Shown here in pieces: positions 16,330 to 55,389 of a stretch of 64,000 bases of DNA. The stretch is from Candidatus Woesebacteria bacterium (GTDB lineage: Bacteria; Patescibacteriota; Microgenomatia; UBA1400; PJMF01): NCBI GenBank assembly GCA_050123235.1, contig JASFHL010000003.1, forward strand, positions 50,077-114,076, given 5' to 3'. Position numbers and translations under genes: made by a program. A model generated the notes under the pieces. The model did no database searches and was not told where the DNA came from. It was given only the letters and a program-made list of their open reading frames with translations. Position 1 is the first letter of the stretch. Every line of letters begins with the position of its first letter.

Positions 16330-16494
16330 ATGAAAAAAATAATAGGTTATTCTCGCATATCAAGTATAAAACAGTTATCTGACAATCAACTAGCTAAAAG
16401 TCAAAAAGAACTGGTTGCTGAATATGTGAATAAAAATAGATGCAAATTAATAGTGACGAATAACGATAGATTTTGCAGAAAGGGAATGAAATGA
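16330..16494 (+). pseudogene. serine-recombinase N-terminal fragment (54 aa) directly upstream of full-length recombinase
   Basis: MKKIIGYSRISSIKQ.. mirrors catalytic N-terminus (xxGYxRVSTxxQ); stop overlaps recombinase ATG (ATGA). Confidence 0.4.
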
Positions 16495-17996
16495 AAAAAG
16501 CAGTTGTCTATGCCCGAGTTTCAGACCCAGGACAAGTTGGAGGTTTGTCACTCGATGTTCAAAAGGAAAAGTGTGCAGAATGGGCAAAGAAAAATAAGTA
16601 TCAAGTAGTCGGGGTATATGAGGATGGTGGCAAAACAGGAACTAAAACAGTAGGTCGTGAAGGTTTAGAAGATATGATTATTCAATGTCAAGAAGAAAGC
16701 ATAAATGTGGCTTTGGTGATAGATACAGACAGAATTGCTAGAAACGAATTTGATCATTATAAAATCGTACACATTCTTAGGGAAAGTAACACTCAACTAG
16801 TAGCAATAAACCAACCAATGATAGATGATTCTGCAGAAGGTAAGCTCATGGAAGGCATGTTAGCCAGTATTAATGCCTTTTATAGTCGTCTAACAGGTCG
16901 CAAGGTTAAAAAAAGTCTAGAGAAGAAGCTCAAGGATGGTGATTGGCCTGGTTGGGCTCCTCTTGGTTATAAGAATGTTAATCTAGGCTCAGAAGACAAA
17001 CCCCATCGTGTTATTCAAGTTGATGAGGATAAGAGTTCCCTCATTAGTGAGTTATTTAAACTTTACTCTACGGGTAGCTATTCGGTTGACGAGCTAGTAG
17101 ATCATATAAACAAGAGGGGTCTAAGAAGCAAAACAGGCAAAAAAATGTATCGCAGTATTGTTTATGAGATGCTTAAAAACCCTTTCTATATCAGCTGGAT
17201 GAAATATAACGGTCAAACTTATAAAGGAAAACATAAAGCCTTAACCACACCAGAAATATTTGAAACCTGCCAGAAAATCATGGATCGGCACAACCATAAT
17301 GCCTGCAGAAGAAGAAAGTACAAGTGGCTTTTAAATGGTTTTGCTTATTGCCAAGAGTGTAATGCAAGACTTTATGGAGATAGGGTTAATGCGAAAAATA
17401 AGGCCTATTATCACGGCAACTCTAGAAGTGGTTGTAGTCACTACATTCCTTTAGATGAGCTTGAAGACGCTGTAGCAGACGAATTTAAGAAGATCGAGTT
17501 ATCAAAAGAGTTTATCCAAGCAGTTTTAGATAAAGCTAGAGAGCTTATCAAACAGTCTAGAGACTCCAGAACATCTGAGATAAACGGCGTGAGAAACGCT
17601 ATCAAAAAATTAGAAGATAAACGCAATATTCTTGAAGATAATCTCTTGGACCAAACCATTGATAAAGAGTCATTCAAGCGTAAACATCAAGACCTTAATT
17701 TTCAAATTCAAAACTTAGAGAATGATATAGCTACTATTGAAAACCAGAGAGGCTTTGATGTTGATGTGATAGAGGAGGTCTTAAAGCTCACCAACAACAT
17801 CTATGAGGTCTATTGTGATGCTGGCTTTGAAGCCAAGCGCCATTACTTAGCTATTTTCTTTGAGAGATTTGATATTAAAGACAAAAAGGTGGCAAAAGTT
17901 ACCTACACACCACTCTTTAAAAAGCTACTTGACTCGAGGAAAGTTAGAGTAAGTAGTAACTGGCTCCCCAGGTGGGACTCGAACCCACAACCTTGA
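16491..17996 (+). CDS. large serine recombinase (resolvase/invertase N-domain + recombinase domain + zinc ribbon + coiled coil)
   Basis: MKKAVVYARVSDPGQ catalytic motif, CQECNARLYGD zinc ribbon; likely start ATG 16491 (track start is TTG at 16473); 3' end overlaps tRNA-Asn. Confidence 0.85.
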   Translation: MKKAVVYARVSDPGQVGGLSLDVQKEKCAEWAKKNKYQVVGVYEDGGKTGTKTVGREGLEDMIIQCQEESINVALVIDTDRIARNEFDHYKIVHILRESNTQLVAINQPMIDDSAEGKLMEGMLASINAFYSRLTGRKVKKSLEKKLKDGDWPGWAPLGYKNVNLGSEDKPHRVIQVDEDKSSLISELFKLYSTGSYSVDELVDHINKRGLRSKTGKKMYRSIVYEMLKNPFYISWMKYNGQTYKGKHKALTTPEIFETCQKIMDRHNHNACRRRKYKWLLNGFAYCQECNARLYGDRVNAKNKAYYHGNSRSGCSHYIPLDELEDAVADEFKKIELSKEFIQAVLDKARELIKQSRDSRTSEINGVRNAIKKLEDKRNILEDNLLDQTIDKESFKRKHQDLNFQIQNLENDIATIENQRGFDVDVIEEVLKLTNNIYEVYCDAGFEAKRHYLAIFFERFDIKDKKVAKVTYTPLFKKLLDSRKVRVSSNWLPRWDSNPQP

Positions 17997-18035
17997 AGTT
18001 AACAGCTTCCTGCTCTGCCATTGAGCTACCGGGGA
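17961..18035 (-). tRNA. tRNA-Asn (anticodon GTT), CCA encoded
   Basis: hand-folded: acceptor TCCCCGG/CTGGGGA, D-arm GCTC-AATGGCA-GAGC, anticodon loop CTGTTAA, T-arm GTGGG-TTCGAGT-CCCAC, discriminator G; one G.A at top of anticodon stem. Confidence 0.65.
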
Positions 18036-27837: not shown

Positions 27838-27877
27838 ATTTGAATTTTGTGCTAGCTGATTGGATTGTTTATGTAGT

Positions 27878-27983
27878 TGATAGGATAATATTCTAAAGAC
27901 TCACCCACTCTCGCCAGAATGTTCTTCTGCTTTGCAGAAACTCTGTAACGCACCGGGTTCGCTTGTAGAATATTATCCTATCA
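27878..27983. repeat. family-2 palindrome-embedded intergenic element, copy A
   Basis: ~70-nt core (aaagactcacccactctcgccagaatgttcttctgctttgcagaaactctgtaacgca) flanked by 17-bp perfect IR gataggataatattcta/tagaatattatcctatc; inverted copy at 55260..55359. Confidence 0.55.
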
Positions 27984-28026
27984 GCTATAAATACCAATAT
28001 TTTAACTAAGTACAAAGCTCATAACT

Positions 28027-37604: not shown

Positions 37605-40600
37605 TTGCGGCCAATAAATAATCAGCAGTTCTAATTCTTCACCCTGAGGCAAAATCCAAGCATTGGCCCAACCGTTATATTGCCAATGTGCTAAAGTCTT
37701 CCATAACTTTGGTTTAATAAAAGCTATCCAGCCTCTATCAAAAGCCTGCGGTAAGACTAATAGGCCTTGCTCACTAGATACCTTTATTTTAGCAGCATAA
37801 AAACTAGTACCCCATTTTTTCTGGCTAATTAATTCTGTATCAAAGTTAAGCTTGCTTTGCTCATCTTGGGAATAAATAGAACTTAACCAGGAAAGTGGCG
37901 CAGTGATAAACTCTGAGCGCTCTACTTGAATAATATTTTCTTCTTTACCATAACTCTCAGCACTTAAATTGAGCAAAAAGAAGCCTTTTTTTGCTGAATT
38001 ATTCTTAGAAGGATAAACTGGAAAAAATAAGTTAAAAGCACCATCAGGAGTCATAGCTTCTATATCAGCCCTTTTGGTGAGTGGATTAATCAAAGATAGG
38101 CTAAGACCAACACCTTGACTATTTTCCCCTTTCAAGTGGTATAAATACTCCAATTCAAAATCTAGGCTCGGGTAAATTAAATTCTCGCATAAAATAGCCT
38201 GGTCTTTAGCCCAATATTCAATTCCATTAGCTAAAACCTTTTTCTTTACCTCTCCCTTTTCTTCAAAAGCGCAATTTTTGGCTGCTAGCTCGCGCCCTGT
38301 TTCTTCTTGCCAAGATTTATCAACAACAAAGGCTTTATTTTGACCATAAGGAATAGCTATTGCTAATTCATTATTTTGTTCAAGATCCAAATTTTGCAAT
38401 TTTTGATCAAAGTTTGCTAACTTTTGCTGGATATCTAATTTAAACTCATCTACTAAAGCAAAGTAAAAAACTAAGACATCATCATATTCAATTGATTGAG
38501 GCGTGTCTTTTTCAGTATTTTTGCTTTTGAGATAAACTTCATAATTTTTGCTCAAGTCAATAGCTGCAAATTCTGATACAGACTGCCATTGCTCGCTAGG
38601 TAAAATATAATTTGTATTTTTTGAATTTTCACATTCTTTGCTTGAATCTAATTGATGGATACAAATCTGTGGATACAAATCATCATCTGTTCTGAAACGG
38701 CTAGTGACTGCTACCAAATACTGCCCCTGTCTGTAAGGAAAGCCACCACTGGCTAAGTTGAATTTGACACAAGCATCAGCATTAAATGATGCCAGATGAA
38801 TAGAATCTGCTTTTTTACTAACACTGTGTGTCCTTGTCCAATTTGTCCAACAAGAATCAAGTTCTTTTTCTTTTAAGAACTCAGTAAAATCCTCGCCAGC
38901 AACACTGCTGGTTTGGAAAACTTTTAATTTAGCTTCTTCTTTACTTGATAAAGAAAAACGTCTAATTATTTTTTCTTTCTCTGACAACTCATTAAGATCC
39001 AAATGGATGATATTTTCACCAATTGAAATCAATAATTCCTCTTGACCATTAATTTTTAAGGTCACTGTTTCACTGCTACTAATATTTAAAAGTTCTCGAT
39101 TGCCTTGATAAAGTTGTGGCAATTGTAAGTCAATAGTTAATTCTAAATTATTGTTTTCTTGGCTGGCTAATAAAGCAGCTGGTATTTTAGAAGTTTTACT
39201 TGAAAAAGTAGGGAAAGTTAAAGCTTGCTTTGTTTTTAACTTCAAAGGGATTAATAAGGCACTATCTTTGACTTCAAAGTCAGCCACTGATAACTCTTCT
39301 TTTTGTAAAGCAGAAAATAGATAAGTAATCCCCTGAACTGACTTTTGTAAATAAGGGCCGTGGTCTAGATAAGCTTGATCTTTGCTGGTGTAATCCACAT
39401 GGTAATTCACATCTACTAAAATTACTTCTTTTGGGGTCTCTAAAGATAAATTTTTGCCTTGATTATCAATGCTGTAAAGCTCTAAATTCTTGAATGATTG
39501 CTCTTTTCTAATCGTTGGCAGTTGCTCAAAAAAATCATCAGTCTCTTGAGCAAATCTAGCCTCTACATAACTACCGGGATTAAAAACTGAGCGGTCTAAT
39601 AAAATTAAGTTTGTATGATATTTTTCAAAAGTTTTCTGAAAAGCTGCTTCATCTAGGCTATATAAGGCCCTATTCATTTGCAGAAATGCAGTTTCGTTCT
39701 TTTTACTCCAAGGATCAAAAGAACGATGATGCATTGCTTGAGGAATTGCTTGCCAATCAAAACCAGAACCACGATAACCCCAATCATTAGTATTAGTTAG
39801 CCAACCCCAAAAAGAATGAATTGGAAAACTAGCAATGCGCGATTGCTGGTAATTTTTATCTAAAAATGAAAAAAGCTCAAAGTAATTCGCTGGTACTTTT
39901 ACTCTCAGCAATGGATAAAAAAACAAACCTTTAAAAGCAGGTGAGGCTAAAAATAAGATTAAAATAACAGCTGGTATCAAAAATATACTTGCCAAAAAGG
40001 AATAAAACTTAGATTGGGAAAAAGTTCTTATCAAGAATAAAGTTGTCACTGAAATTAAAATGCTGACTATCAAAGCATAGAGCAAAGCAAACTTGGTAAA
40101 AGTAAAACGAAAAATCTGAGCAAAAAAGGGCACAGTATTTCTCAGAAAAGATGAAATTGAGCCAATAATTGGAATATTTGTCCCTAGCATTAATAAAGCT
40201 AAAGCCCAAATGACTATTAAGGATAAGGGCAAGGCTTTATTCTTTTTCTTAATCAGTGAATAAGAAAGAATAACAATTCCCAATAAAGATAAGACTGTAA
40301 AAAAAATAGCTATTAATTGGTAAGGGCTAGATTGATAAAACTCAAGCCATTCTTTCATAATTGGCCTGAATTGTTTTTCTTCTGGATGCCAATCATAAAA
40401 ACCAAGATGCATACCGCCAAATTTGGCTATTGAAGCTAGATCACCCCAGCGATGACTGCGGTAAAAAATACCTTCAGTAGAAAAGCGATTTTGTTTGGCA
40501 TTGGTGATTTCAGCTGATTTACTTAAGGCTGAATAAACATAAGGTAAGCCCCAAAAAGAATGTACTAGAATTAAAGTCAAGCCTGCAATCAGAACTCTCT

Positions 40601-41357
40601 TGAGTTTATCTTTATTAAGTTTAGAAAAAAGATTAAAAAATAAAATAATAGCCATTACCAATGCATAAGGAATGAAAATAGTGGGCACATGAGCTTGAGA
40701 AACTCCTAATAAATTGAGTAAAATCAAAAAAAAGAGTGCGGAATAGTTTCCCAGACGCAAATAACGCCGTAAAGCCCATATTCCCCAAGGAAAAACTGCA
40801 AAGTGAATCACAAACAACTCAAAAGCCAAGTGATACATTTGGATAGTCATTAGATTGAATTGATAAAATAAAGCGCCAATCAAAGCAGTGCCCATCAACA
40901 ATCGTTGAATTTTTTGATATTTACTATTGCTATGCAGACGATTAGCGATCTTAGTCGAGCTCGCACGCAGGTCTTTTTTCTTTTGAAGACTTAAAACAGC
41001 AGGTAAGATATCTCTATATAAAAGCAAATACATGCCTATCCCACCCAAAAGGTGAGTCAAAACAATAAAAATGTAGCGAAGACTGTTATTGGGAAAAATA
41101 AGAGACAATAAAAAAATATAAAGCCAATGCACTATGTTAGCGCTATGAGCTTGTCCATCAAGCGAGCCGAGACCGCGATATTCTTGCCATAAACTAAAAA
41201 TAATTCGTTTAAGGTTGAGTGAAAAATTAAATTCTGGGGTGGTCACATCCCAACCCAGCAGATACGTCTCCACACCATAATTGCTCAAAAACAAAAGCAA
41301 AGATAATATTGATAAAATTAAAATCGGCAGCAGATGAAATAGCTTTTTTGCTTTCAC
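37515..41357 (-). CDS. 1280-aa polytopic membrane protein with large extracytoplasmic C-terminal domain (possible YfhO/GT-C-like)
   Basis: N-terminal ~20 TM helices then ~650-aa soluble region then C-terminal TM; 90-nt convergent overlap with 36663..37604. Confidence 0.55.
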   Translation of the reverse strand: MKAKKLFHLLPILILSILSLLLFLSNYGVETYLLGWDVTTPEFNFSLNLKRIIFSLWQEYRGLGSLDGQAHSANIVHWLYIFLLSLIFPNNSLRYIFIVLTHLLGGIGMYLLLYRDILPAVLSLQKKKDLRASSTKIANRLHSNSKYQKIQRLLMGTALIGALFYQFNLMTIQMYHLAFELFVIHFAVFPWGIWALRRYLRLGNYSALFFLILLNLLGVSQAHVPTIFIPYALVMAIILFFNLFSKLNKDKLKRVLIAGLTLILVHSFWGLPYVYSALSKSAEITNAKQNRFSTEGIFYRSHRWGDLASIAKFGGMHLGFYDWHPEEKQFRPIMKEWLEFYQSSPYQLIAIFFTVLSLLGIVILSYSLIKKKNKALPLSLIVIWALALLMLGTNIPIIGSISSFLRNTVPFFAQIFRFTFTKFALLYALIVSILISVTTLFLIRTFSQSKFYSFLASIFLIPAVILILFLASPAFKGLFFYPLLRVKVPANYFELFSFLDKNYQQSRIASFPIHSFWGWLTNTNDWGYRGSGFDWQAIPQAMHHRSFDPWSKKNETAFLQMNRALYSLDEAAFQKTFEKYHTNLILLDRSVFNPGSYVEARFAQETDDFFEQLPTIRKEQSFKNLELYSIDNQGKNLSLETPKEVILVDVNYHVDYTSKDQAYLDHGPYLQKSVQGITYLFSALQKEELSVADFEVKDSALLIPLKLKTKQALTFPTFSSKTSKIPAALLASQENNNLELTIDLQLPQLYQGNRELLNISSSETVTLKINGQEELLISIGENIIHLDLNELSEKEKIIRRFSLSSKEEAKLKVFQTSSVAGEDFTEFLKEKELDSCWTNWTRTHSVSKKADSIHLASFNADACVKFNLASGGFPYRQGQYLVAVTSRFRTDDDLYPQICIHQLDSSKECENSKNTNYILPSEQWQSVSEFAAIDLSKNYEVYLKSKNTEKDTPQSIEYDDVLVFYFALVDEFKLDIQQKLANFDQKLQNLDLEQNNELAIAIPYGQNKAFVVDKSWQEETGRELAAKNCAFEEKGEVKKKVLANGIEYWAKDQAILCENLIYPSLDFELEYLYHLKGENSQGVGLSLSLINPLTKRADIEAMTPDGAFNLFFPVYPSKNNSAKKGFFLLNLSAESYGKEENIIQVERSEFITAPLSWLSSIYSQDEQSKLNFDTELISQKKWGTSFYAAKIKVSSEQGLLVLPQAFDRGWIAFIKPKLWKTLAHWQYNGWANAWILPQGEELELLIIYWPQLLNFLGYLLLAGLLIVGATKLFFTYFKKQ

Positions 41358-41384
41358 TCTACTATCATATAATATTTCGTGAAA

Positions 41385-42290
41385 CTAAGACACAGTCGTG
41401 GCAAGCTGCTTCCAACTCCCTTTAAATCGAGCTATAAAAGGAAAAGCTAAATCAAATGGCTTCATGCCTTTCAATACTAAATAAGTGCCAATAGAAAGCC
41501 ATTCTGGCAAAAACAAAATATAAGCGCTTTGCATTAACATTAAAATCAGCATTTTGATGTTCACAGGATAGCCCAAGTCGCGAATTGCATAATATCTTAC
41601 CCTCAAGCTATTAATAAATTTAGCTCGCACATTTTTCATTGAGTTATTGTTACTATGCAAACGATAATAAATTAGCTTTTCTGGTAAATTAGCAAATTTA
41701 CCATTCATCAATAAAGTAAAAAGGGTCATATAATCATCAGCTGAACTGAGTTGATCAGTCCACAACTTTTTTTGATCTGGCAATAAAGATCTCCTCACCA
41801 TAATACTAGGATGCAAAATAGGATGGAAATTACCATATTCTTTGTAAATAGTCTCATGATCTAAAGGAAAAAGTTTATGGCCTACCACTTGCTTATTTTC
41901 GTCAATAATATGACCTTGAGTAGCTACCAAAATATGATCAGGGTTATGATCAAGAAAATAAACTTGTTTAGCAAACCTATCTGGATGAGCAATATCATCT
42001 TGGTCCATCCTAGCAATATACTTTGCTTGAGCTGCTTTGAAACCCACATTAGCTGAAGCTGATTCACCTAGATTCTGCTTATTATTAAGTAATTTAATTC
42101 TTTTATCCTTTTTAAGAAAACTTTTGATGATCTTTTCAGAATTATCGGTACTGGCATCATTGACAATAATCAACTCAAAATCTTTAAAAGACTGTTTTAA
42201 AATACTTTCAATTGCTTCAGCCAAAAAACGAGCGCCATTAAAAACGGGCATGATTACTGAAATAGTAGTTTTTTTTCTATTTTTAGACAT
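41385..42290 (-). CDS. glycosyltransferase family 2
   Basis: ISVIMPVFNGARFL...IIVNDASTDNS. Confidence 0.8.
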   Translation of the reverse strand: MSKNRKKTTISVIMPVFNGARFLAEAIESILKQSFKDFELIIVNDASTDNSEKIIKSFLKKDKRIKLLNNKQNLGESASANVGFKAAQAKYIARMDQDDIAHPDRFAKQVYFLDHNPDHILVATQGHIIDENKQVVGHKLFPLDHETIYKEYGNFHPILHPSIMVRRSLLPDQKKLWTDQLSSADDYMTLFTLLMNGKFANLPEKLIYYRLHSNNNSMKNVRAKFINSLRVRYYAIRDLGYPVNIKMLILMLMQSAYILFLPEWLSIGTYLVLKGMKPFDLAFPFIARFKGSWKQLATTVS

Positions 42291-42305
42291 ATTTTTATTA
42301 AGGAA

Positions 42306-42334
42306 ATTATATCAAGAAAAGTCTTTTTTGTCAA
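42306..42334 (-). promoter_or_regulatory. promoter TTGACA-17-TATAAT (minus) with conserved TATCCTATAG upstream element; short leader
   Basis: revcomp of 42306..42346 gives tatcctatagttttgaca-N17-tataat. Confidence 0.45.
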
Positions 42335-42423
42335 AACTATAGGATATTATTATCTCAAGTACAACTCTTAAAATATAAAAAAATTGAAATTTAGCCAAAA
42401 AAAAGGTTATGATGAATTAAATA

Positions 42424-43926
42424 ATGATTTTTACCAGTAACAGGCGAAATCTAACAATTATGAAAAAAATAACTAAAAACTTTAAACAAAATCTGGGCTT
42501 AATAATTATCCTCACTTTTAGTCTAGCAGTAGGCTTATATCAATTACAAAAACCCATGATTGCCAATTCTGATGCATACATGCATTCCTTAGTAGCTTAC
42601 CGATCATATTTTTATGACCCTCATTATGTCTGGCTTCCTGGCTATAATTATCTAATACATAGCTTGGTTTTAATTTTGCCTCAAAGCTTGAGATTTCTTA
42701 AAATAATTAGGGTTTTTTCCTTAATCTTTTCACTGCTGACTATTATCTTCTCCTATTTACTTGCCAAGAGAATTTTCAAAAAAAACAGCATTGCCAATAT
42801 TACTGCCTTACTCGTAGCTAGTTTACCTATGTTTGTCTTTATGTTTACCCAAAGCTTCCAAGAGGTCGTTTTTATACCTCTGTTCTTGGCTGCTATTTAT
42901 TTTTTAATGGCCAAAAAATCTCCTTTTTTGTCATTGACTTTAAGTCTCTTGCTATTAAATTTAGCTCATAGTATCCGCTATGAAAGCTGGTTTGTTTTAC
43001 CATTATTGTGGCTATATCTTATCTTGAAAAAAAATATCTCTAAAAAATTGAAAATTTATTTTGTGCTGGCTTCTCTAGTTGTGCCTATTGTAATGTCATT
43101 AGTTTTTTATAAATACAATCATAGCCTTTTATTTTTACAAGAATTCCGACAGAAACAACAACAAGGCTATGAAGAAATATTAGGGCCAATTTCTAGTAAA
43201 GGCAATTTAAGTCAAAGCATGATTAAGTTTTCAGAATTCTACACTAGCGTTTTTGATTTAGCATATATTGCTCTAGCTATCTTGAGCTTTCTATTAATAG
43301 CCAAAAGAAACAAAAAAACTTATTTACTCTTTTTTCTCCCTTTACTGCTTTTAGCTCTACAGTTCTGGTCTTTTTTTAATGGATCTAATGTTGATCCTCA
43401 TGACAGGTATTTTCTGATTCCTGCTATCATCCAAATGCCATTTGTAGCCTTGGTGCTAAATAAAATTATCAAAGCAAAACCCTTTTTCTCTAAAGCATCA
43501 ATTCTCAATTTCTTAATCCTCTTGCCATTATCGACCCTTGTCTACGTTAACCAATATCAAAAAAGCAAAGTTAAACATTATCAGCATGAATTAATTGGTA
43601 TTCGAGATAATATTGAACAATTAATAGTAGTAGGTAAAGGTGTACAAGAGCATGTAATTAATGAAAGTTACTATGCTTTTTTTCCTGTAGATCAAAATAA
43701 TTACCATGTAGGCAAGGCTATTGAATACTTCTCTGATAGAGTACAAATCCCCATGCCTCGTGAGCAATTAAATCCAGATGATGTTTTTGCTAAAGGAGTG
43801 AACATTGCTGTGCTTGAAACTGAAGGAGAGATTGAAGCTGATTATTTAAATTCTTTGCAAATGGAGATGGATTTACTCGATCAAAACATTGGACAAAGAT
43901 CATACTACACTTTTATTATGAAGTGA
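42424..43926 (+). CDS. GT-C fold glycosyltransferase (ArnT/PMT_2-like)
   Basis: polytopic; first-loop acidic motif NSDAYMHSLVAYR; true start may be MKKITKN at 42460. Confidence 0.55.
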   Translation: MIFTSNRRNLTIMKKITKNFKQNLGLIIILTFSLAVGLYQLQKPMIANSDAYMHSLVAYRSYFYDPHYVWLPGYNYLIHSLVLILPQSLRFLKIIRVFSLIFSLLTIIFSYLLAKRIFKKNSIANITALLVASLPMFVFMFTQSFQEVVFIPLFLAAIYFLMAKKSPFLSLTLSLLLLNLAHSIRYESWFVLPLLWLYLILKKNISKKLKIYFVLASLVVPIVMSLVFYKYNHSLLFLQEFRQKQQQGYEEILGPISSKGNLSQSMIKFSEFYTSVFDLAYIALAILSFLLIAKRNKKTYLLFFLPLLLLALQFWSFFNGSNVDPHDRYFLIPAIIQMPFVALVLNKIIKAKPFFSKASILNFLILLPLSTLVYVNQYQKSKVKHYQHELIGIRDNIEQLIVVGKGVQEHVINESYYAFFPVDQNNYHVGKAIEYFSDRVQIPMPREQLNPDDVFAKGVNIAVLETEGEIEADYLNSLQMEMDLLDQNIGQRSYYTFIMK

Positions 43927-43933
43927 TAAAAAA

Positions 43934-43959
43934 ACACCCTCAAAGGAGAGTGTTTTTTA
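43934..43959 (+). terminator. rho-independent terminator (acaccctc-aaag-gagagtgt + TTTTTT)
   Basis: seen in sequence after GT-C gene stop; A-run upstream. Confidence 0.45.
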
Positions 43960-44013
43960 CTTGTGTTTATCTAGACTACATAATCTAGACTTAACTAATT
44001 TAATAATTTCTAA

Positions 44014-44298
44014 TTATTGAATTAGTTCATAACCATTATTTCTGACACATTGCTCATAGATAGTGCCATTAGGCATTTCTGAGGTAGTGACAGTGTCTTT
44101 CTTCTCATCGATAGTTTCGATGGTCACTTTACTAGCCATAGCACAATCTTTAATAGCTCTGCTTTTAAGATCTTTTTCTTTGAAAGCTAAAACGCTTTGC
44201 ACAGAAAGATAAAGAACCAGAGCCAAAACCATGGCACTCAAAAGCATAAATACTGGACGCATAACTAGGCCCAGCTCTTTAAGGTTAGGCTTTTGCAT
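44014..44298 (-). CDS. small membrane-anchored hypothetical protein
   Basis: single N-terminal TM. Confidence 0.35.
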   Translation of the reverse strand: MQKPNLKELGLVMRPVFMLLSAMVLALVLYLSVQSVLAFKEKDLKSRAIKDCAMASKVTIETIDEKKDTVTTSEMPNGTIYEQCVRNNGYELIQ

Positions 44299-44417
44299 AG
44301 ACTTTCCTTTCTTTTTAAAATTTAGCTAGCTAACTAATAATGAAAAATGTTTAGCTAAATTTTATTTTTTAATTAATAACAAACTTGAGGCAGCAATCTG
44401 GTGATTAATGACTAAAG

Positions 44418-44452
44418 TTTGTGCCCCTCGTCCTCCAGGTGAGGGGCACAAA
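44418..44452 (-). terminator. hairpin tttgtgcccctc/gaggggcacaaa (12-bp stem) downstream of lipoprotein gene
   Basis: seen in sequence. Confidence 0.4.
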
Positions 44453-44575
44453 GCACACGAAAGCGAAATTGGCAGCTGGTCAAGCGCGCTGGGTGGAGCC
44501 CGGGGTGTCGCTCGTGGTGCAGACGATGCGCGCACCACTTGGGACGATGCTAGTAGGGTGGGCATGAAGCCCTCC

Positions 44576-45715
44576 CTACTGAATCATACCTGAGTAGGTG
44601 GGCAGCTCGAGCAGAGCCTGCTGCGGGATGTCAAGCAGGGTGACGCTGACCCAACCAATTCTCTTGTCGGGCGCATCATACAGGAGTACGCGCGCGCCGT
44701 TATCCGAGAGCTGGACGGGGTATACACCGATAAGGCTCCCATTGAACAATCCAGTAGGTTGGCTGGATTCGGGAGTTCTATAGGTGACAGCGCCGCGCTT
44801 ACCACCTTCCACCCAATCCACCGCGTACAAAAAGCCCTGCCAGCGGAATGAGAACCCGCCGGCCGCGCCGCCCACGTTGTCTACGCGAGCGCAGGCAGCA
44901 TTGGGCCCTGTAACGAGCATAAAGCTCCCGTTCGCAAAAGAACCAGCAAACTCACCCAACGACAGCGGCCCCTCGCAGTCAAGGTCATATGAGACCTTAC
45001 TGCTCAAGAAAAGCCCCGAATAAAACGTCCCCTGCACGACTTCCGGGTAGGTATGTTTAGGATCCGGATATGTCTGATCCGGCCCCCAGAACATTACTGA
45101 CACTGAGTGGGCCGCCTTCGTGCTGGGGTCGCCCGGGGTGTCTGGCGCGAGATCTGGCTGAAAACAAAAGCCGTACTCATCGCACTCGACATTGAACCTG
45201 TCGTCACGCACGCCGCCCGACCAACCGGAAAAGGCAAAGGGCTCCAGCCCCGCCTCTCCCCGTCCCTCGTCCGAGTACGGAAAGGGGCGGTCGTTCCCCC
45301 AGTACGCTTCGCGGGAGGGCAGAGCGGCGGTGGCGTCGGCGTCTGCCTCGGGCGCAGGGTTGTCGGCGAGTTGGGGGGTGGCGGTCGGTGTGGGCGTGTC
45401 AGCGGGCCTGGCCGACTGCGCAGTCGCCGCCAGCTCCATGCCCGACAGCGCCCCCTCGGGCCCGCCACCGTCACCCAAAAACGCCTGTTGCGTGGCTAAC
45501 TCGGCCGACAACTCCTCCACCCGCCCAGCAGCCACCACGCGCGTGGCGACCATCTCGGCCGTGGCCGTGGCCTCAGCCCGGGCAACCTCGTCGGTTGCCC
45601 TGACCTGGGCCGTAGCCAGCTCGTCACCAGCCGGCAGCGAGTTCGAGTCTTTGTTACAGCCACTGGCCACCAGCAGCAGCAGCCCAAACAACACCAAAAA
45701 AAACTTCTTATCCAT
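44576..45715 (-). CDS. lipoprotein (signal peptide + lipobox LVASGC), Ala/Thr-rich linker, unknown C-terminal domain; high-GC codon usage
   Basis: MDKKFFLVLFGLLLLVASGC; strong SD; overlapping plus-strand ORFs 45107/45192 are GC-rich artefacts. Confidence 0.65.
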   Translation of the reverse strand: MDKKFFLVLFGLLLLVASGCNKDSNSLPAGDELATAQVRATDEVARAEATATAEMVATRVVAAGRVEELSAELATQQAFLGDGGGPEGALSGMELAATAQSARPADTPTPTATPQLADNPAPEADADATAALPSREAYWGNDRPFPYSDEGRGEAGLEPFAFSGWSGGVRDDRFNVECDEYGFCFQPDLAPDTPGDPSTKAAHSVSVMFWGPDQTYPDPKHTYPEVVQGTFYSGLFLSSKVSYDLDCEGPLSLGEFAGSFANGSFMLVTGPNAACARVDNVGGAAGGFSFRWQGFLYAVDWVEGGKRGAVTYRTPESSQPTGLFNGSLIGVYPVQLSDNGARVLLYDAPDKRIGWVSVTLLDIPQQALLELPTYSGMIQ

Positions 45716-46891
45716 GATGTACTACCTCCTTATGTCTGTGGCACATCCCCCTCATGGAACGCGGCCCCTTAGGCTTTCGGCTTGGGGTCCGCTTCAGGGA
45801 GTGCCTGGGTTTGGGCCGGCCAGCGGCGCGATCCTCGTCGCGCTCCGCATTGCCAGCCCTATTCAAAGAAATAAAGTGGGTCGCACGGCTCGACGACCCC
45901 CGTCCGTAACGCGTGCCCCGCAGACCGCGCTGCCGGGGGGACTTAGCCGTTCGGCTCAGAGGGTCGCACCGCGCGCAACCATGAGCAAGTCCAGTCTAAA
46001 GAAAACTCATTTTCTTCACACTGGACTTGCCCAGTTTCATTTATCTATTTTTTTTAATTAGGAGGTTGTTTTTTCCACCATTTCTAAAACCCCAATTTAC
46101 TAATTTAATTTCGCCAATTTATGAAATCCATAACTGCAACTAATTTCTAATCACAAAATTATAGATTTAATTTAATACTTGTGTGCTTTGTTAAAGAGCT
46201 GTTTTAACTATCAATAAAAATTATTTTTAGTAAAACTACCCTGCTAAAAAAAATTTCTCTCCCGCCAAAAAGCTCGTCATTGAGCCTCAGGCAAGTAAGC
46301 AGACATTTTCAAAATAAAAATGCCTAAGATTAATCTTCAGCGTAATTTTTATTTAAAAAAAATAAAAACATCACTAAAGACTAATTTTTAGCAGCTACCA
46401 GATCAAATTATAACACTTTTTTATTACTTCTGTCAATGTTATAGGACTTTTGAAAATTACACTTTATGTAATCTTTCTCATCTAAAATAATAAGTATGAA
46501 ATTAAATCAAGCTCAAAATAAATTAATGGCTAAGCTTCATATTGATCTCGCTAAAAATTTCGCTGTCACAGTATTAATTAATGAAACTAATAAAATAAAC
46601 AATACCCTAAATAAGACAATATTTATTATGACTTGTGGTATAATATTTTTATCTTTAATTCTATTATCATTAGATTATTTAAAGAAGGTAAAATGAATTT
46701 TAATTTAGAAGCAATTTATGAAGGGGTTTATTCTTTTCAATTGTTGATAGTTCTTACAGGAATTTTTGGAGCATTAGTTTTGATCTCTCACAGGATGGGT
46801 AGCAAAGACAAAAAAGATAAAAAATAATCTTAATCTTATCTAAAGATTATCTTTTTTTATGTTGAGGATTGAAACATCTAAATATTTAATA

Positions 46892-47053
46892 AACAACTTA
46901 CTACAAATAAATATTAGAGTGTTGAAGCGAGGTCTGGCCAGGATCGAACTAGCAATCAATTTACTGCCGAGCTTCACTGAGTGAGCCTTGTATCTTAAAA
47001 ACAAATAAAATGCTGTAGCGAACGACTCTAATATTTATTTGTAGTAAGTTGTT
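46892..47053. repeat. family-1 palindrome-embedded element, copy 2
   Basis: 104-nt core flanked by 29-bp perfect IR aacaacttactacaaataaatattagagt (46892-46920 / 47025-47053). Confidence 0.65.
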
Positions 47054-47082
47054 GAATATATAAATTATAATATTTTTTTTAA

Positions 47083-48123
47083 TCACTCAGCATAAAAATC
47101 AAGATATATCTCTACCACTTGTTCCCAGCTTTGTTTTTTAGCCAAGTTATAAACTTTTTTAAGAAACTGTTCTTTTTTTTGACTATTTTTTTGATAATCT
47201 TTGATTTGATCAGCTAATTTTTCAGGTGAACTATCAATCAGAAGATAATCTTTAAATAAGCTCATCTTAAGGTAATCTTCCCTCAAGTGATTATCATAAG
47301 CAGCCACTACTAGACATTGATGTATCATGCCTTCTAACATAGAAAGATAACCTCCAGCAAAACATATTTCTGCCTTTTTTAGGTAGCTTCGATAATCTTT
47401 GGCTAGCAGAAAACCATGTACTTTACCATATTTTTTACATTCTGTTCTCAAAGGCCCATCACCACAGAAATTAACTCGATAGTCTGGTAATAGGGCTAAA
47501 GTTGCTAGCAAAACATCTAGTCCATTATCTTGGTCTAAGCGCCCCAGATAGACTATAGATTTTGCTTTTTTTCTGCTAGCGGTCACCCCTAAATGCCTCA
47601 CGCCGCCATAAAGCAGAGCATCAGCTTTCACTGCATAATATTTCTCAATATAGCTACCAACACAAATTACCTTATCTGCTAATTTAGCTGCCAGCCGTTT
47701 ATACAAAATATTTTTTTTAGGAATAGGGAAACTGCCTTCCCAGCCATGCATGGTGAGCACTATTTTTTGTTTTGGCCAAAGATGTATTAAAGATAATAAT
47801 TTAAATGGCCAGAACCAGATTGAAACATCATGGATATGGATTAGTTTAATTTTAAATAACTCTTTAGAAATAAATAATTTAAATAATTGCCACCAGATAA
47901 CCAGCAAGCCCAAAAATTTAATTTGAGGATAGCTAAAACGAATTATTCTTATGCCATCAATTTCCTCTTCATCTTTTAAATCAGTTTTATGTTTGGGGCT
48001 TAGGACTACAATTTGATAGCCTTTTTGAGCTAAAATTTGATTAGTTTCTCTGAGGTGAGTTTCTACCCCACCTAAACTAGGATGATAAGCAGGAGCTAAA
48101 ATTAAGAGTTGTTTTTTTTTCAT
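47083..48123 (-). CDS. glycosyltransferase family 1 (GT4-like)
   Basis: N-terminal LILAPAYHPSLGGVETH, C-terminal GT-B fold pattern. Confidence 0.75.
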   Translation of the reverse strand: MKKKQLLILAPAYHPSLGGVETHLRETNQILAQKGYQIVVLSPKHKTDLKDEEEIDGIRIIRFSYPQIKFLGLLVIWWQLFKLFISKELFKIKLIHIHDVSIWFWPFKLLSLIHLWPKQKIVLTMHGWEGSFPIPKKNILYKRLAAKLADKVICVGSYIEKYYAVKADALLYGGVRHLGVTASRKKAKSIVYLGRLDQDNGLDVLLATLALLPDYRVNFCGDGPLRTECKKYGKVHGFLLAKDYRSYLKKAEICFAGGYLSMLEGMIHQCLVVAAYDNHLREDYLKMSLFKDYLLIDSSPEKLADQIKDYQKNSQKKEQFLKKVYNLAKKQSWEQVVEIYLDFYAE

Positions 48124-48148: not shown

Positions 48149-49126
48149 ATGACTCAGCCAAGCAAAACAAGTATTTCGCTCATTATTACTGTACTTAATG
48201 AAGAAAAAACAATTAAGCTTTTACTAGATGCTATTAAAAAACAGAACCTGCTGCCTTCAGAAATAATCATAGTTGATGGAGGCTCAACTGATCGAACTTT
48301 GAAGATCATCCAAAAATTTGCCCAAAAAAATCCCAAGTTAAAAATCAAAAGTTTTGTCAAAAAAGGTAATCGGAGCGTAGGGCGAAATTTCGCCATTCAA
48401 GAGGCAAAAAATCAGTTAATTGCCATCACTGACGCCGGTTGTATTCCTCAGCGTGATTGGTTAGAGCAGTTGTATAAAAAATGGCTAGAGGCAAACTCAA
48501 GCGATGATAAAAAGCAGCAAACTAAGGTAGTGGCTGGTTATTATCAAGGCCAAGCAGACACTGCTTTTCAAGAAGCAGTCATTCCTTATGTTTTAGTGAT
48601 GCCAGAGCGAGTGAATGAGAAAAATTTTCTGCCAGCCACGCGCTCGATGCTGATTGAGAAATCTATCTGGCAGCAAGTCAATGGTTTTGATAAAAAATTA
48701 AATTACAATGAAGATTATGCTTTTGCTAAAAAACTAAAAAAACAGGGCTTTAGAATCGTTTTTGCTAAAAAAGCTGTGGTAGACTGGCTACCCAGAACTA
48801 ATTTAAAGGCTTTTATGAAAATGATTTATCTGTTTGCTCGAGGTGATATTGAGGCTGGTATCCTGCGACCGAAGGTGATTCTGATTTTTGCTAGGTATTT
48901 TTTGATGGTGTTTATCTTAGTTTTGCTAGAATGGAAAATTTCTGGCCAAACTGCTTTATTAGTTGCGCTAACTGCCTTAATCATTTATTCAGCCTGGGCA
49001 ATTGTTAAAAACCTTAAATATACGCCCAAAGGCTGGTTCTATCTGCCTCTTCTTCAAATCAGCTCTGATTTAGCAGTCATCTTAGGTAGTCTGAGAGGAT
49101 TTTTTATTTACTATTTTTTAAAATAA
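48149..49126 (+). CDS. glycosyltransferase family 2 with C-terminal TM helices
   Basis: ISLIITVLNEE...IIVDGGSTDRT. Confidence 0.75.
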   Translation: MTQPSKTSISLIITVLNEEKTIKLLLDAIKKQNLLPSEIIIVDGGSTDRTLKIIQKFAQKNPKLKIKSFVKKGNRSVGRNFAIQEAKNQLIAITDAGCIPQRDWLEQLYKKWLEANSSDDKKQQTKVVAGYYQGQADTAFQEAVIPYVLVMPERVNEKNFLPATRSMLIEKSIWQQVNGFDKKLNYNEDYAFAKKLKKQGFRIVFAKKAVVDWLPRTNLKAFMKMIYLFARGDIEAGILRPKVILIFARYFLMVFILVLLEWKISGQTALLVALTALIIYSAWAIVKNLKYTPKGWFYLPLLQISSDLAVILGSLRGFFIYYFLK

Positions 49127-49148
49127 AAATCTTGAAGAGAGTGACAAG

Positions 49149-49307
49149 AACATTAATATATATAAATATGAGAGCGTTGAAGCGAGATCTGGCTAAGTTT
49201 ACATTAGCAAAAAACATACTACCGAGCTTCACTGAGTGAGCCTAGTATCTTAAAAAAAGAAGAAATGTTGCAGCGAACGACTCTTAGATTTATATATAGT
49301 AATGTTC
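49149..49307. repeat. family-1 palindrome-embedded element, copy 3
   Basis: core conserved with copies 1 and 2; 27-bp flanking IR gaacattaatatatataaatatgagag / revcomp with 2 mismatches + 1 wobble. Confidence 0.6.
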
Positions 49308-49378
49308 TAGATAACTTCTTAAAGTTTACCGCGACTGTGTCTTATTTTAAAAAGATAGTAAGTGAAATAAAGAAACAA

Positions 49379-49465
49379 AAAAACCGCGTCTGCCTAATTT
49401 GTCTGACAAATCGGGCAGACGTTAATCGATTCCTAAAATAAGGGAATTTAAGAGACGCGGTTTTT
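49379..49465. terminator. bidirectional terminator: 13-bp outer stem aaaaaccgcgtct/agacgcggttttt enclosing inner hairpins
   Basis: T-runs on both strands; spans stop codon of 49448..49840. Confidence 0.5.
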
Positions 49466-49840
49466 AAGTTTTAGAATGCTAGCAAAAGCTCCACCCATTA
49501 AAGTGGTGATAGCAGCTAAGCTAGTTTTGAAGTCTAAAGCTGTATCGGCAGGTTCATGTACCTTGACGGGTTTACCATCAACATAAATGATTGTCTCGCC
49601 TTCAGCTGTTTGCTCTTGACTGATTCGTTGAGCTTGAACCTGAGCTTGATCTAATTCACAAACTAATTCAACGTCTTGTCCATAAGCTCCACTGGAGACA
49701 TAGCGACATTCAGCTGATTGAGCTTGAGCTTGAACCTGCTCAGCTTCTTGGCTCTGTTCTTGAGCTAAGACTGGAAAGCTAGCTTGACTTAGCATTAAAG
49801 CTGCTAAGGCTAATGCTGACACGAGTCTGAACTTTTTCAT
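49448..49840 (-). CDS. secreted Gln-rich hypothetical protein
   Basis: signal peptide MKKFRLVSALALAALMLSQASFPVLA. Confidence 0.4.
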   Translation of the reverse strand: MKKFRLVSALALAALMLSQASFPVLAQEQSQEAEQVQAQAQSAECRYVSSGAYGQDVELVCELDQAQVQAQRISQEQTAEGETIIYVDGKPVKVHEPADTALDFKTSLAAITTLMGGAFASILKLKNRVS

Positions 49841-55202: not shown

Positions 55203-55259
55203 AGAGGCTTTATTTAGATTAGGCTTTGTGCTAGTTTATTAAATTGTTTCTATATTCAC

Positions 55260-55359
55260 TAGAATAATATTTTAAAAGCGAAGCCATTGCGTTACAGAGT
55301 TTCTGCAAAGCAGAAGAACATTCTGGCGAGAGTGGGTGAGTCTTTAAAATATTATTCTA
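55260..55359. repeat. family-2 palindrome-embedded intergenic element, copy B (inverted relative to copy A)
   Basis: core ~90% identical to revcomp of 27896..27965; 18-bp flanking IR with compensatory change relative to copy A. Confidence 0.55.
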
Positions 55360-55389
55360 CTAAATATAAACACCCATATTTTAATTTAA

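Follow-up and report, generated by a model that had tools for sequence, protein, structure and literature searches.

What lies at the centre of the long inverted repeats in this Candidatus Woesebacteria genome, and how do the two arms of such a repeat come to differ from copy to copy and yet match each other? In the window, by which we mean the whole 64,000-nucleotide stretch of DNA that was analysed, a short sequence recurs three times within 16 kb of a cell-envelope glycosylation region. The sequence-only reading had described a core of about 105 nt set in copy-specific inverted repeats, and had proposed either a structured RNA family with a covarying closing helix or a miniature mobile element inserted into the middle of pre-existing palindromes. 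The three locations that it gave were recovered. The central 22-mer CCGAGCTTCACYGAGTGAGCCT occurs three times in the window against 0.00 expected by chance, and nhmmer, with a profile made from the copies (E 1e-51 to 1e-54), finds these three copies only, with which cmsearch agrees.

33453..33602, minus strand: copy 1 of the 150-nt unit (recovered by the 22-mer, nhmmer, cmsearch and alignment)
46898..47047, plus strand: copy 2 of the 150-nt unit (5' terminal inverted repeat, or TIR, 46898-46920; core 46921-47024; 3' TIR 47025-47047)
49153..49302, plus strand: copy 3 of the 150-nt unit (the most diverged, with 4 imperfect stem pairs)

Pairwise local alignments with wide flanks place the ends of the unit. 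Homology between copies stops sharply at TAGTAA on the 3' side, and between copies 1 and 2 it also stops sharply on the 5' side, at the mirror-image TTACTA. The repeated unit, TTACTA…TAGTAA, is 150 nt long and consists of a 23-bp TIR around a 104-nt core. The core proposed earlier is therefore real, but it is the inner part of a larger unit that includes the TIRs. Likewise, the innermost 23 bp of the supposedly non-homologous flanks are homologous and belong to the unit, whereas the outer flanks are indeed copy-specific and complementary, and reach further than had been noted. The TIR pattern TTACTAnAnATAAATATTrGAGT matches 6/6 arms against 0.01 expected. Identity between copies is 74-87% in the TIRs and 81-89% in the core, and copy 2 is nearest to copy 1 (88%). 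The arms are A+T-rich; the core is asymmetric and has a higher G+C content than the arms.

With a window of 34% G+C, and with two Logan contigs that break inside copies (L154 in copy 1, L001 in copy 3), it had to be considered that the copies might resemble each other by chance, being A+T-rich, or be a product of faulty assembly. We regard this as hardly credible, given that essentially no matches to the 22-mer or to the TIR pattern are expected, that the nhmmer E-values are so low, that the palindromes are imperfect and carry indels, unlike fold-back chimeras, and that L001, an independent assembly, reproduces copy 2 and its flanks exactly. The similarity among the cores thus exceeds what A+T-rich sequence gives by chance.

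The absence of an ORF that the sequence-only reading had reported was also borne out. ORFs across the unit are short and different in each copy, with none conserved; in copy 3 an in-frame stop falls at the place of KYKAHS in copies 1 and 2, for which reason a protein-coding unit was dropped; and translated core ORFs used as protein queries had no match among 5.8 billion proteins. On these grounds the repeat unit is non-coding. It shares with MITEs its small size, the lack of a transposase ORF, and terminal inverted repeats at both ends of all three copies. No direct target-site duplication was found at the copies, the adjoining flanks being reverse complements of each other (AACAAC/GTTGTT, AGAACA/TGTTCT), and no cognate transposase lies within the 64-kb window. 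With four readable copies, the three in the window and one, r1, in the nearest relative, the statistics carry little weight as regards ends, targets and strand.

The inverted repeats themselves are as first described. In copy 2 the arm is 38 nt long and 92% complementary, and includes 29 perfect base pairs; in copy 1 it is 27 nt long and 93% complementary, with a perfect run of 20; and the inverted repeat of copy 3 is imperfect. What is unusual is the way in which the arms differ. Between copies 1 and 2, each of the differences in the 5' TIR (3/3) is mirrored in the 3' TIR. By alignment count, 11 pairs are changed on both sides, a number reached in 0/500 shuffles, and the closing stem holds 10 of these 11. 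The stems are nearly all Watson-Crick, the four imperfect pairs of copy 3 including only one G-U, and complementarity reaches the ends of the unit directly, with no loop remnant. The covariation foreseen for an RNA closing helix is therefore real; as we argue below, however, the evidence favours a process at the level of DNA.

Inside the unit, the following helices can be drawn on the plus strand of copy 2.

46923..46976, plus strand: left-half hairpin of the core, P3 (TGAAGC 46923-46928 with GCTTCA 46971-46976)
46937-46941 and 46949-46953, plus strand: hairpin 2, inside P3 (GCCAG with CTAGC)
46971..46986, plus strand: central hairpin GCTTCAC-TGA-GTGAGC, which excludes simultaneous P3

The internal hairpin that had been called conserved is thus present, but it competes with the TGAAGC/GCTTCA helix. 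The full element folds with z = -7.5 to -8.7 against shuffles, and its reverse strand folds almost equally well. The 104-nt core minus the TIRs gives z of -0.4 to +1.0 on either strand, no better than shuffles, and its minimum-energy folds vary between copies, so that the arms account for the stability of the whole-element fold. One pair of hairpin 2 is compensated. Some one-sided changes in the helix GCGA/UUGC obey the G-U wobble rule on the plus strand, whereas in copy 2 hairpin 2 contains, on the plus strand, a C·A mismatch for which the minus strand would have G·U; read in this way, the evidence on strand is contradictory. The core holds three similar 10-mers: TGAAGCGAGG, the reverse complement of CCGAGCTTCA, and TGAGTGAGCC.

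Searches for known RNA features returned little. The Rfam scan that had been suggested as a way to recognise an RNA family was negative at the copies: no Rfam 15 family reaches its gathering threshold there, the only passing match in the window is one tRNA, and around copy 2 there are sub-threshold matches only, to generic long hairpins. ARAGORN found nothing at the copies, and in a promoter and terminator scan no signal stands out there. The stems, A+T-rich and 23-29 bp long, are unlike an intrinsic terminator with its short G+C-rich stem and U tract. A tRNA-like, tmRNA or Y-RNA-like origin was rejected, since the T-loop-like hairpin GCTAG-TTCGATC-CTGGC that copies 1 and 2 carry on their reverse strand is absent from copy 3 and from r1, and since ARAGORN gave no hit.

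Beyond the unit, each copy lies within a larger palindrome with outer arms of about 70-170 nt, spanning approximately 46841-47115 at copy 2 and 49102-49367 at copy 3.

33356..33729: extended, imperfect palindrome centred on copy 1
33388-33414 and 33652-33678: perfect 27-bp pair of the copy-1 palindrome
33356-33379 and 33706-33729: 24-bp pair (88%) of the copy-1 palindrome
46841..46897: left outer arm of copy 2, in which 46841-46870 repeats the last 10 codons and stop of GT4 in inverted, diverged form
47048..47115: right outer arm of copy 2, in which 47083-47115 is the conserved 3' coding end of GT4 (…VVEIYLDFYAE-stop)
49102..49152: left outer arm of copy 3, overlapping the end of GT2, namely its C-terminal tail, which is not conserved, and its stop codon (…FFIYYFLK-stop)
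49303..49367: right outer arm of copy 3, an inverted copy of TTTACTAT-TTTTTAAAATAA plus a 13-nt insertion

Within a copy the outer arms resemble each other's reverse complement (p<0.0005, shuffling). Between copies they are dissimilar, with the sole exception of the left flanks of copies 1 and 3, which have about 32 nt in common (p<0.0005); copy 2 is without this common flank and carries a copy of its own right flank in its place. At copy 1, a poorly paired stretch of 38-48 nt separates the unit from the perfect 27-bp outer block. The copy-2 palindrome takes in about 33 nt of conserved GT4 coding sequence. The C-terminus of GT4 aligns with its orthologs, in which W333 and Y340 are invariant, and because of this conservation the right, coding arm is ancestral and 46841-46870 in the left arm a decayed inverted copy of it. 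The idea that the repeat had donated the tail of GT4 was dropped, given that this tail is conserved in orthologs. The tail of GT2 is not conserved among homologs, and for it both a donation by the repeat and the direction of arm copying at copy 3 are ambiguous. Formation of the palindromes by folding back around the central hairpin was dropped as well, as the core is not palindromic.

Several other hairpins and palindromes lie in this part of the window. A hairpin AAAACCGCG…CGCGGTTTTTTT at 49373-49471 overlaps the 3' end of a 130-aa ORF, downstream of an M23 peptidase operon, and is conserved at the orthologous place in the nearest relative (L147, 12688-12765); it is likely an ancestral terminator. 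An extension of the copy-3 palindrome to 49385-49400 was dropped, because that stretch belongs to this terminator, common with the relative. 'Empty' imperfect palindromes occur elsewhere between window genes, for example at 32573-32653 with 40-nt arms. The latter lies, together with copy 1, in a stretch of 1.8 kb without a convincing gene (32544-34335), from a tRNA-Leu to the first G+C-rich gene. Around copy 1, tblastn found no pseudogene remnants.

A second family of palindromic repeats is found in the same window. Its two copies, at 27866-27994 (plus strand) and 55246-55375 (minus strand), are both located between tandem genes, and have perfect arms of 17-18 bp around a 66-nt core that is about 95% identical between them (AAGACTCACCC…TTCGCTT). 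A Logan contig, L136, breaks inside one of the two. The family is unrelated to the 150-nt unit and shows the same mirrored arm changes, the variants AGGAT/AGAAT and TTCTA/TTTTA each being present in both arms of a copy. That two unrelated families have changed in the same mirrored manner speaks for a general process in this genome, one that acts on DNA.

The region that carries the 150-nt unit is the only part of the window in which synteny with relatives is broken. In the relatives (L149, L151, L152, L155 and L156), Dus-C39-(MT) is directly followed by GT4, with GT2 later, in some after one or two genes. In the window, GT4 is inverted, and about 14.7 kb (32343-47083) of inserted or rearranged DNA separates it from MT; this stretch is bracketed by copy 1 on the minus strand and copy 2 on the plus strand. 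GT2 and GT4 were vertically inherited, and their neighbours are conserved in relatives. Copies 2 and 3 sit between convergent genes.

Between copies 1 and 2 there are two islands, at 33700-36540 and 44400-46010, with 55-74% G+C, or 60-65% by a second figure, against 34% for the window. They encode a 716-aa beta-helix/NosD-like protein and a 379-aa protein without a Pfam match, and are probably foreign DNA. In two independent Logan assemblies, L154 and L001, both are continuous with their A+T-rich flanks. Elsewhere, at 16473-18035, a large serine recombinase of 507 aa abuts a tRNA-Asn; it is the only recombinase in the window and lies 15 kb from the copies. Upstream of it are a type I restriction-modification system and a PD-(D/E)XK gene, and this region is probably an integrated island.

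How widely the unit is distributed was approached at several scales. The closest database genome has only 56-60% protein identity to the window genome. A covariance model of the three window copies finds one diverged homolog in this nearest relative, with 32 bits and E of about 5e-6; its score of 97 bits with model R2 is not independent, since R2 includes it.

L137, 14047-14201, minus strand: r1, the relative's copy, between the starts of trmD and ugd (divergent genes, a different locus)

The relative's copy retains, in order, the blocks TTGAAG.GA, CTTCAC-TAA-GTAAGC, TTAAAA and GCGAACG, and in its closing stem and hairpin 2 the sequence has changed and the pairing has been kept. Its P3 is TGAAGTGAAG/CTTCACTTCA, with two compensatory pairs relative to TGAAGC/GCTTCA. 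Within r1 (L137, 14071-14174) CTTCAC is duplicated (CTTCACTTCAC), giving a perfect 10-bp helix with TGAAGTGAAG, and this duplication could be the footprint of a template switch.

With nhmmer and covariance models, no copy besides r1 was found in about 1.4 Mb of related CPR loci. The GTDB representative genomes hold 0 exact matches to the 20-mer central hairpin; a 17-mer matched 48 loci in JGI metagenomes, all of them chance matches confined to the pattern; three core motifs gave chance matches only in IMG/VR; and blastn against phage and plasmid collections gave no match. The 3' flank of GT2 in the nearest relative contains neither palindrome nor unit, and the relative is too distant to serve as an empty site. 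In the literature on Patescibacteria we found nothing about miniature inverted-repeat elements. The repeat family is genuine, restricted to one lineage and apparently undescribed.

How, then, could arms that differ between copies stay complementary within each? We suspect that the 150-nt family is a lineage-restricted, MITE-like palindromic repeat whose arms are maintained, and have grown outward, by hairpin-templated (template-switch) DNA copying, and we hold this account about as likely to be right as wrong. The unit was copied several times in the glycosylation region, and a strongly diverged version survives at a different locus in the closest related genus. Its sharply bounded homology, its TIRs and its uniform divergence favour a MITE-like unit, and we infer its mobility only from its dispersal and sharp boundaries. 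In this scenario, intrastrand or nascent-strand template switching at quasipalindromes would keep the arms complementary and extend them outward, as hairpin-templated synthesis would put the reverse complement of one flank onto the opposite side. A single event of this kind would change several pairs in a compensatory manner, the growing palindrome would automatically be centred on the unit, and enlarged units could later be duplicated along with the added flank. Published work on template switching (PMC8794818) describes how it turns imperfect inverted repeats into perfect ones, creates reverse-complement copies and, in a single event, makes compensatory changes at several bases. The term stands for a way of mutating and not for a family of elements, and outward growth into the 3' ends of genes is what we infer for the present case.

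Template switching would account for the mirrored arm changes, the complementarity up to the ends of the unit, its central position and the inverted end of GT4. It also fits the history of the flanks, in which copy 2 is closest to copy 1 and yet has had its left flank replaced. We favour a DNA-level process because the closing stem accounts for 10 of the 11 covarying pairs, pairing in the stems is almost exclusively Watson-Crick, complementarity extends into the flanks and GT4, the core by itself is no more stable than shuffles, and the second family behaves in the same way. Some observations do not sit easily with it. The separated 27-bp block at copy 1 looks like nesting and argues against smooth outward growth, and the wobble-rule changes in GCGA/UUGC on the plus strand are RNA-like. 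Furthermore, the core blocks TTGAAG.GA, CTTCAC and GCGAACG survive between genera at 56-60% protein identity, which implies selection on the core that template switching leaves unexplained.

One alternative is a family of structured non-coding RNA genes, in which selection on the RNA fold would maintain a long closing helix. The RNA, rod-like and about 150 nt long, would have conserved junction motifs, a hairpin in its left half and, on the 3' side, a segment rich in A. Such an RNA is what one would read from the covariation in the closing helix, the compensated pair in hairpin 2, the two compensatory P3 pairs of the relative, the wobble-compatible changes in GCGA/UUGC, the persistence of ordered blocks in two genera and the low z of the whole element. 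We nevertheless consider it rather unlikely. The z of the whole element disappears with the TIRs, the remaining core folds differently in each copy, and the reverse strand folds almost as well, with the hairpin 2 mismatch of copy 2 favouring the minus strand; perfect stems of 29 bp, and complementarity of 70-170 nt running into flanks and coding sequence, are unexpected under selection on an RNA. In addition, the position relative to genes is inconsistent, between convergent ends at copies 2 and 3 and between divergent starts at r1, promoter and terminator signals are not outstanding, and the weak Rfam matches are generic.

The other proposal of the sequence-only reading was a miniature mobile element inserted into the middle of pre-existing palindromes. 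In the form considered here the targets would be long palindromes, for instance terminator hairpins, entered specifically at the dyad centre, which recalls the REP/PU-targeting insertion sequences and the mobile sRNA module of ISPpu9. Part of it agrees with our reading, namely a MITE-like unit with sharp ends and TIRs; its pre-existing target palindromes find no support. Sharp ends without direct target duplication, reverse-complementary adjoining flanks, the perfect 27-bp outer inverted repeat around copy 1, the 'empty' palindromes between window genes, and the precedent of documented REP-targeting insertion sequences (PMC1525189, PMC12288879) are all in its favour. It would require, however, three independent hits exactly on the axis of loop-less palindromes, one of which contains conserved GT4 coding sequence, unusual for a pre-existing terminator. 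Independent events would not be expected to leave copies 1 and 3 with a common left flank, the GT2 3' flank of the nearest relative has no palindrome, and the window has no transposase. We judge this explanation unlikely, though least so for copy 1, where a poorly paired stretch sets the perfect 27-bp outer block apart from the unit. Improbable, in our view, is a third possibility, that the copies are protein-binding or recombination sites at the borders of exchangeable blocks of glycosylation genes, with copies 1 (minus) and 2 (plus) on either side of a variable segment of some 13 kb, and copies 2 and 3 (both plus) on either side of the GT4-GT2 pair. The clustering of three copies in 16 kb at the one region of broken synteny, the two foreign-looking islands between copies 1 and 2, and the recurring 10-mer in the core could be understood in this way. 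No recombinase is adjacent, however, the only one in the window being that beside tRNA-Asn, 15 kb away; GT2 and GT4 are vertical with conserved neighbours; and the relative's copy, between trmD and ugd, is at no cassette border.

Known repeat families provide partial parallels to the 150-nt unit. The bcr1 element of the Bacillus cereus group is about 155 bp long and MITE-like, flanked by 5-bp direct repeats and transcribed, and is reported to show compensatory changes between copies (PMC3184786). The unit described here resembles it in size, intergenic location, dispersed copies, long fold and compensatory changes, and differs from it in having flanks that are reverse complements and not direct repeats, and in sequence, with no similarity. 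Correia/CREE, ERIC, RUP and SPRITE elements have TIRs, a non-coding core of about 100-170 bp and long stem-loops, often at the 3' ends of genes (PMC3184786), and in these respects (TIRs around a non-coding core, a long fold, the 3' ends of genes) our unit is like them. Unlike classical MITEs, it has no target-site duplication, the drift of its TIRs is mirrored, and it lies in larger, copy-specific palindromes; no cognate IS was found for it in the 64-kb window.

REPINs and REPs, mobilised by RAYTs, are hairpin-forming intergenic repeats for which long vertical persistence is possible (bioRxiv 10.1101/2021.07.10.451892). They have short, G+C-rich, conserved arms and a variable loop, whereas here the arms are A+T-rich and about as diverged between copies as the core, and between genera only core blocks are recognisable; no Y1 (RAYT) transposase domain occurs in the window ORFs scanned. 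Palindrome-targeting insertion sequences (REP/PU-targeting, the IS110 family, ISPpu9 with Ssr9) insert so that they are flanked by the halves of a palindrome without direct duplication (PMC1525189, PMC12288879). The arrangement of a conserved insert between palindrome halves, without direct duplication, is similar. Elements of the IS1397, ISKpn1 and IS110 type, however, carry a transposase gene and are directed at a family of palindromes that is itself repeated, whereas our unit has no ORF and its flanking palindromes are unrelated to each other, one of them with coding sequence. The unit does not fit the definition of an integron attC site, since its GTTGAAG and GCGAAC, read directly, depart from GTTRRRY and RYYYAAC, nor that of a retron msr-msd, as no reverse transcriptase is adjacent; neither an integron integrase nor a reverse transcriptase domain was found in neighbouring ORFs.

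From the perspective of how repeats are recognised, the window offers a clear case from nature of paralogous repeats whose two inverted arms have changed in concert, and of palindromes that have absorbed the 3' coding end of a conserved gene. Covariation in a closing helix is usually taken as proof of a functional RNA. Copying at the level of DNA can give the same signal, and RNA-discovery pipelines can therefore be misled. Such repeats also break assemblies, as the three Logan contigs that end in them illustrate. What a long hairpin may do for the cell where convergent genes meet at their 3' ends is a matter of conjecture; it might act as an RNA 3'-end hairpin or as a barrier to transcription.

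The genomes of CPR bacteria (Patescibacteria) are small and generally thought to be low in repetitive and mobile DNA. There is a bolder reading of the core, which we advance tentatively and do not consider the probable one: that it is an undescribed structured RNA or protein-recognised element of one Woesebacteria-like CPR lineage, multicopy and kept across genera, whose DNA grows palindromes that capture inverted gene ends. If this were true, a small replicator or RNA gene would be reshaping the 3' ends of cell-envelope genes in genomes that are thought to be poor in mobile DNA.
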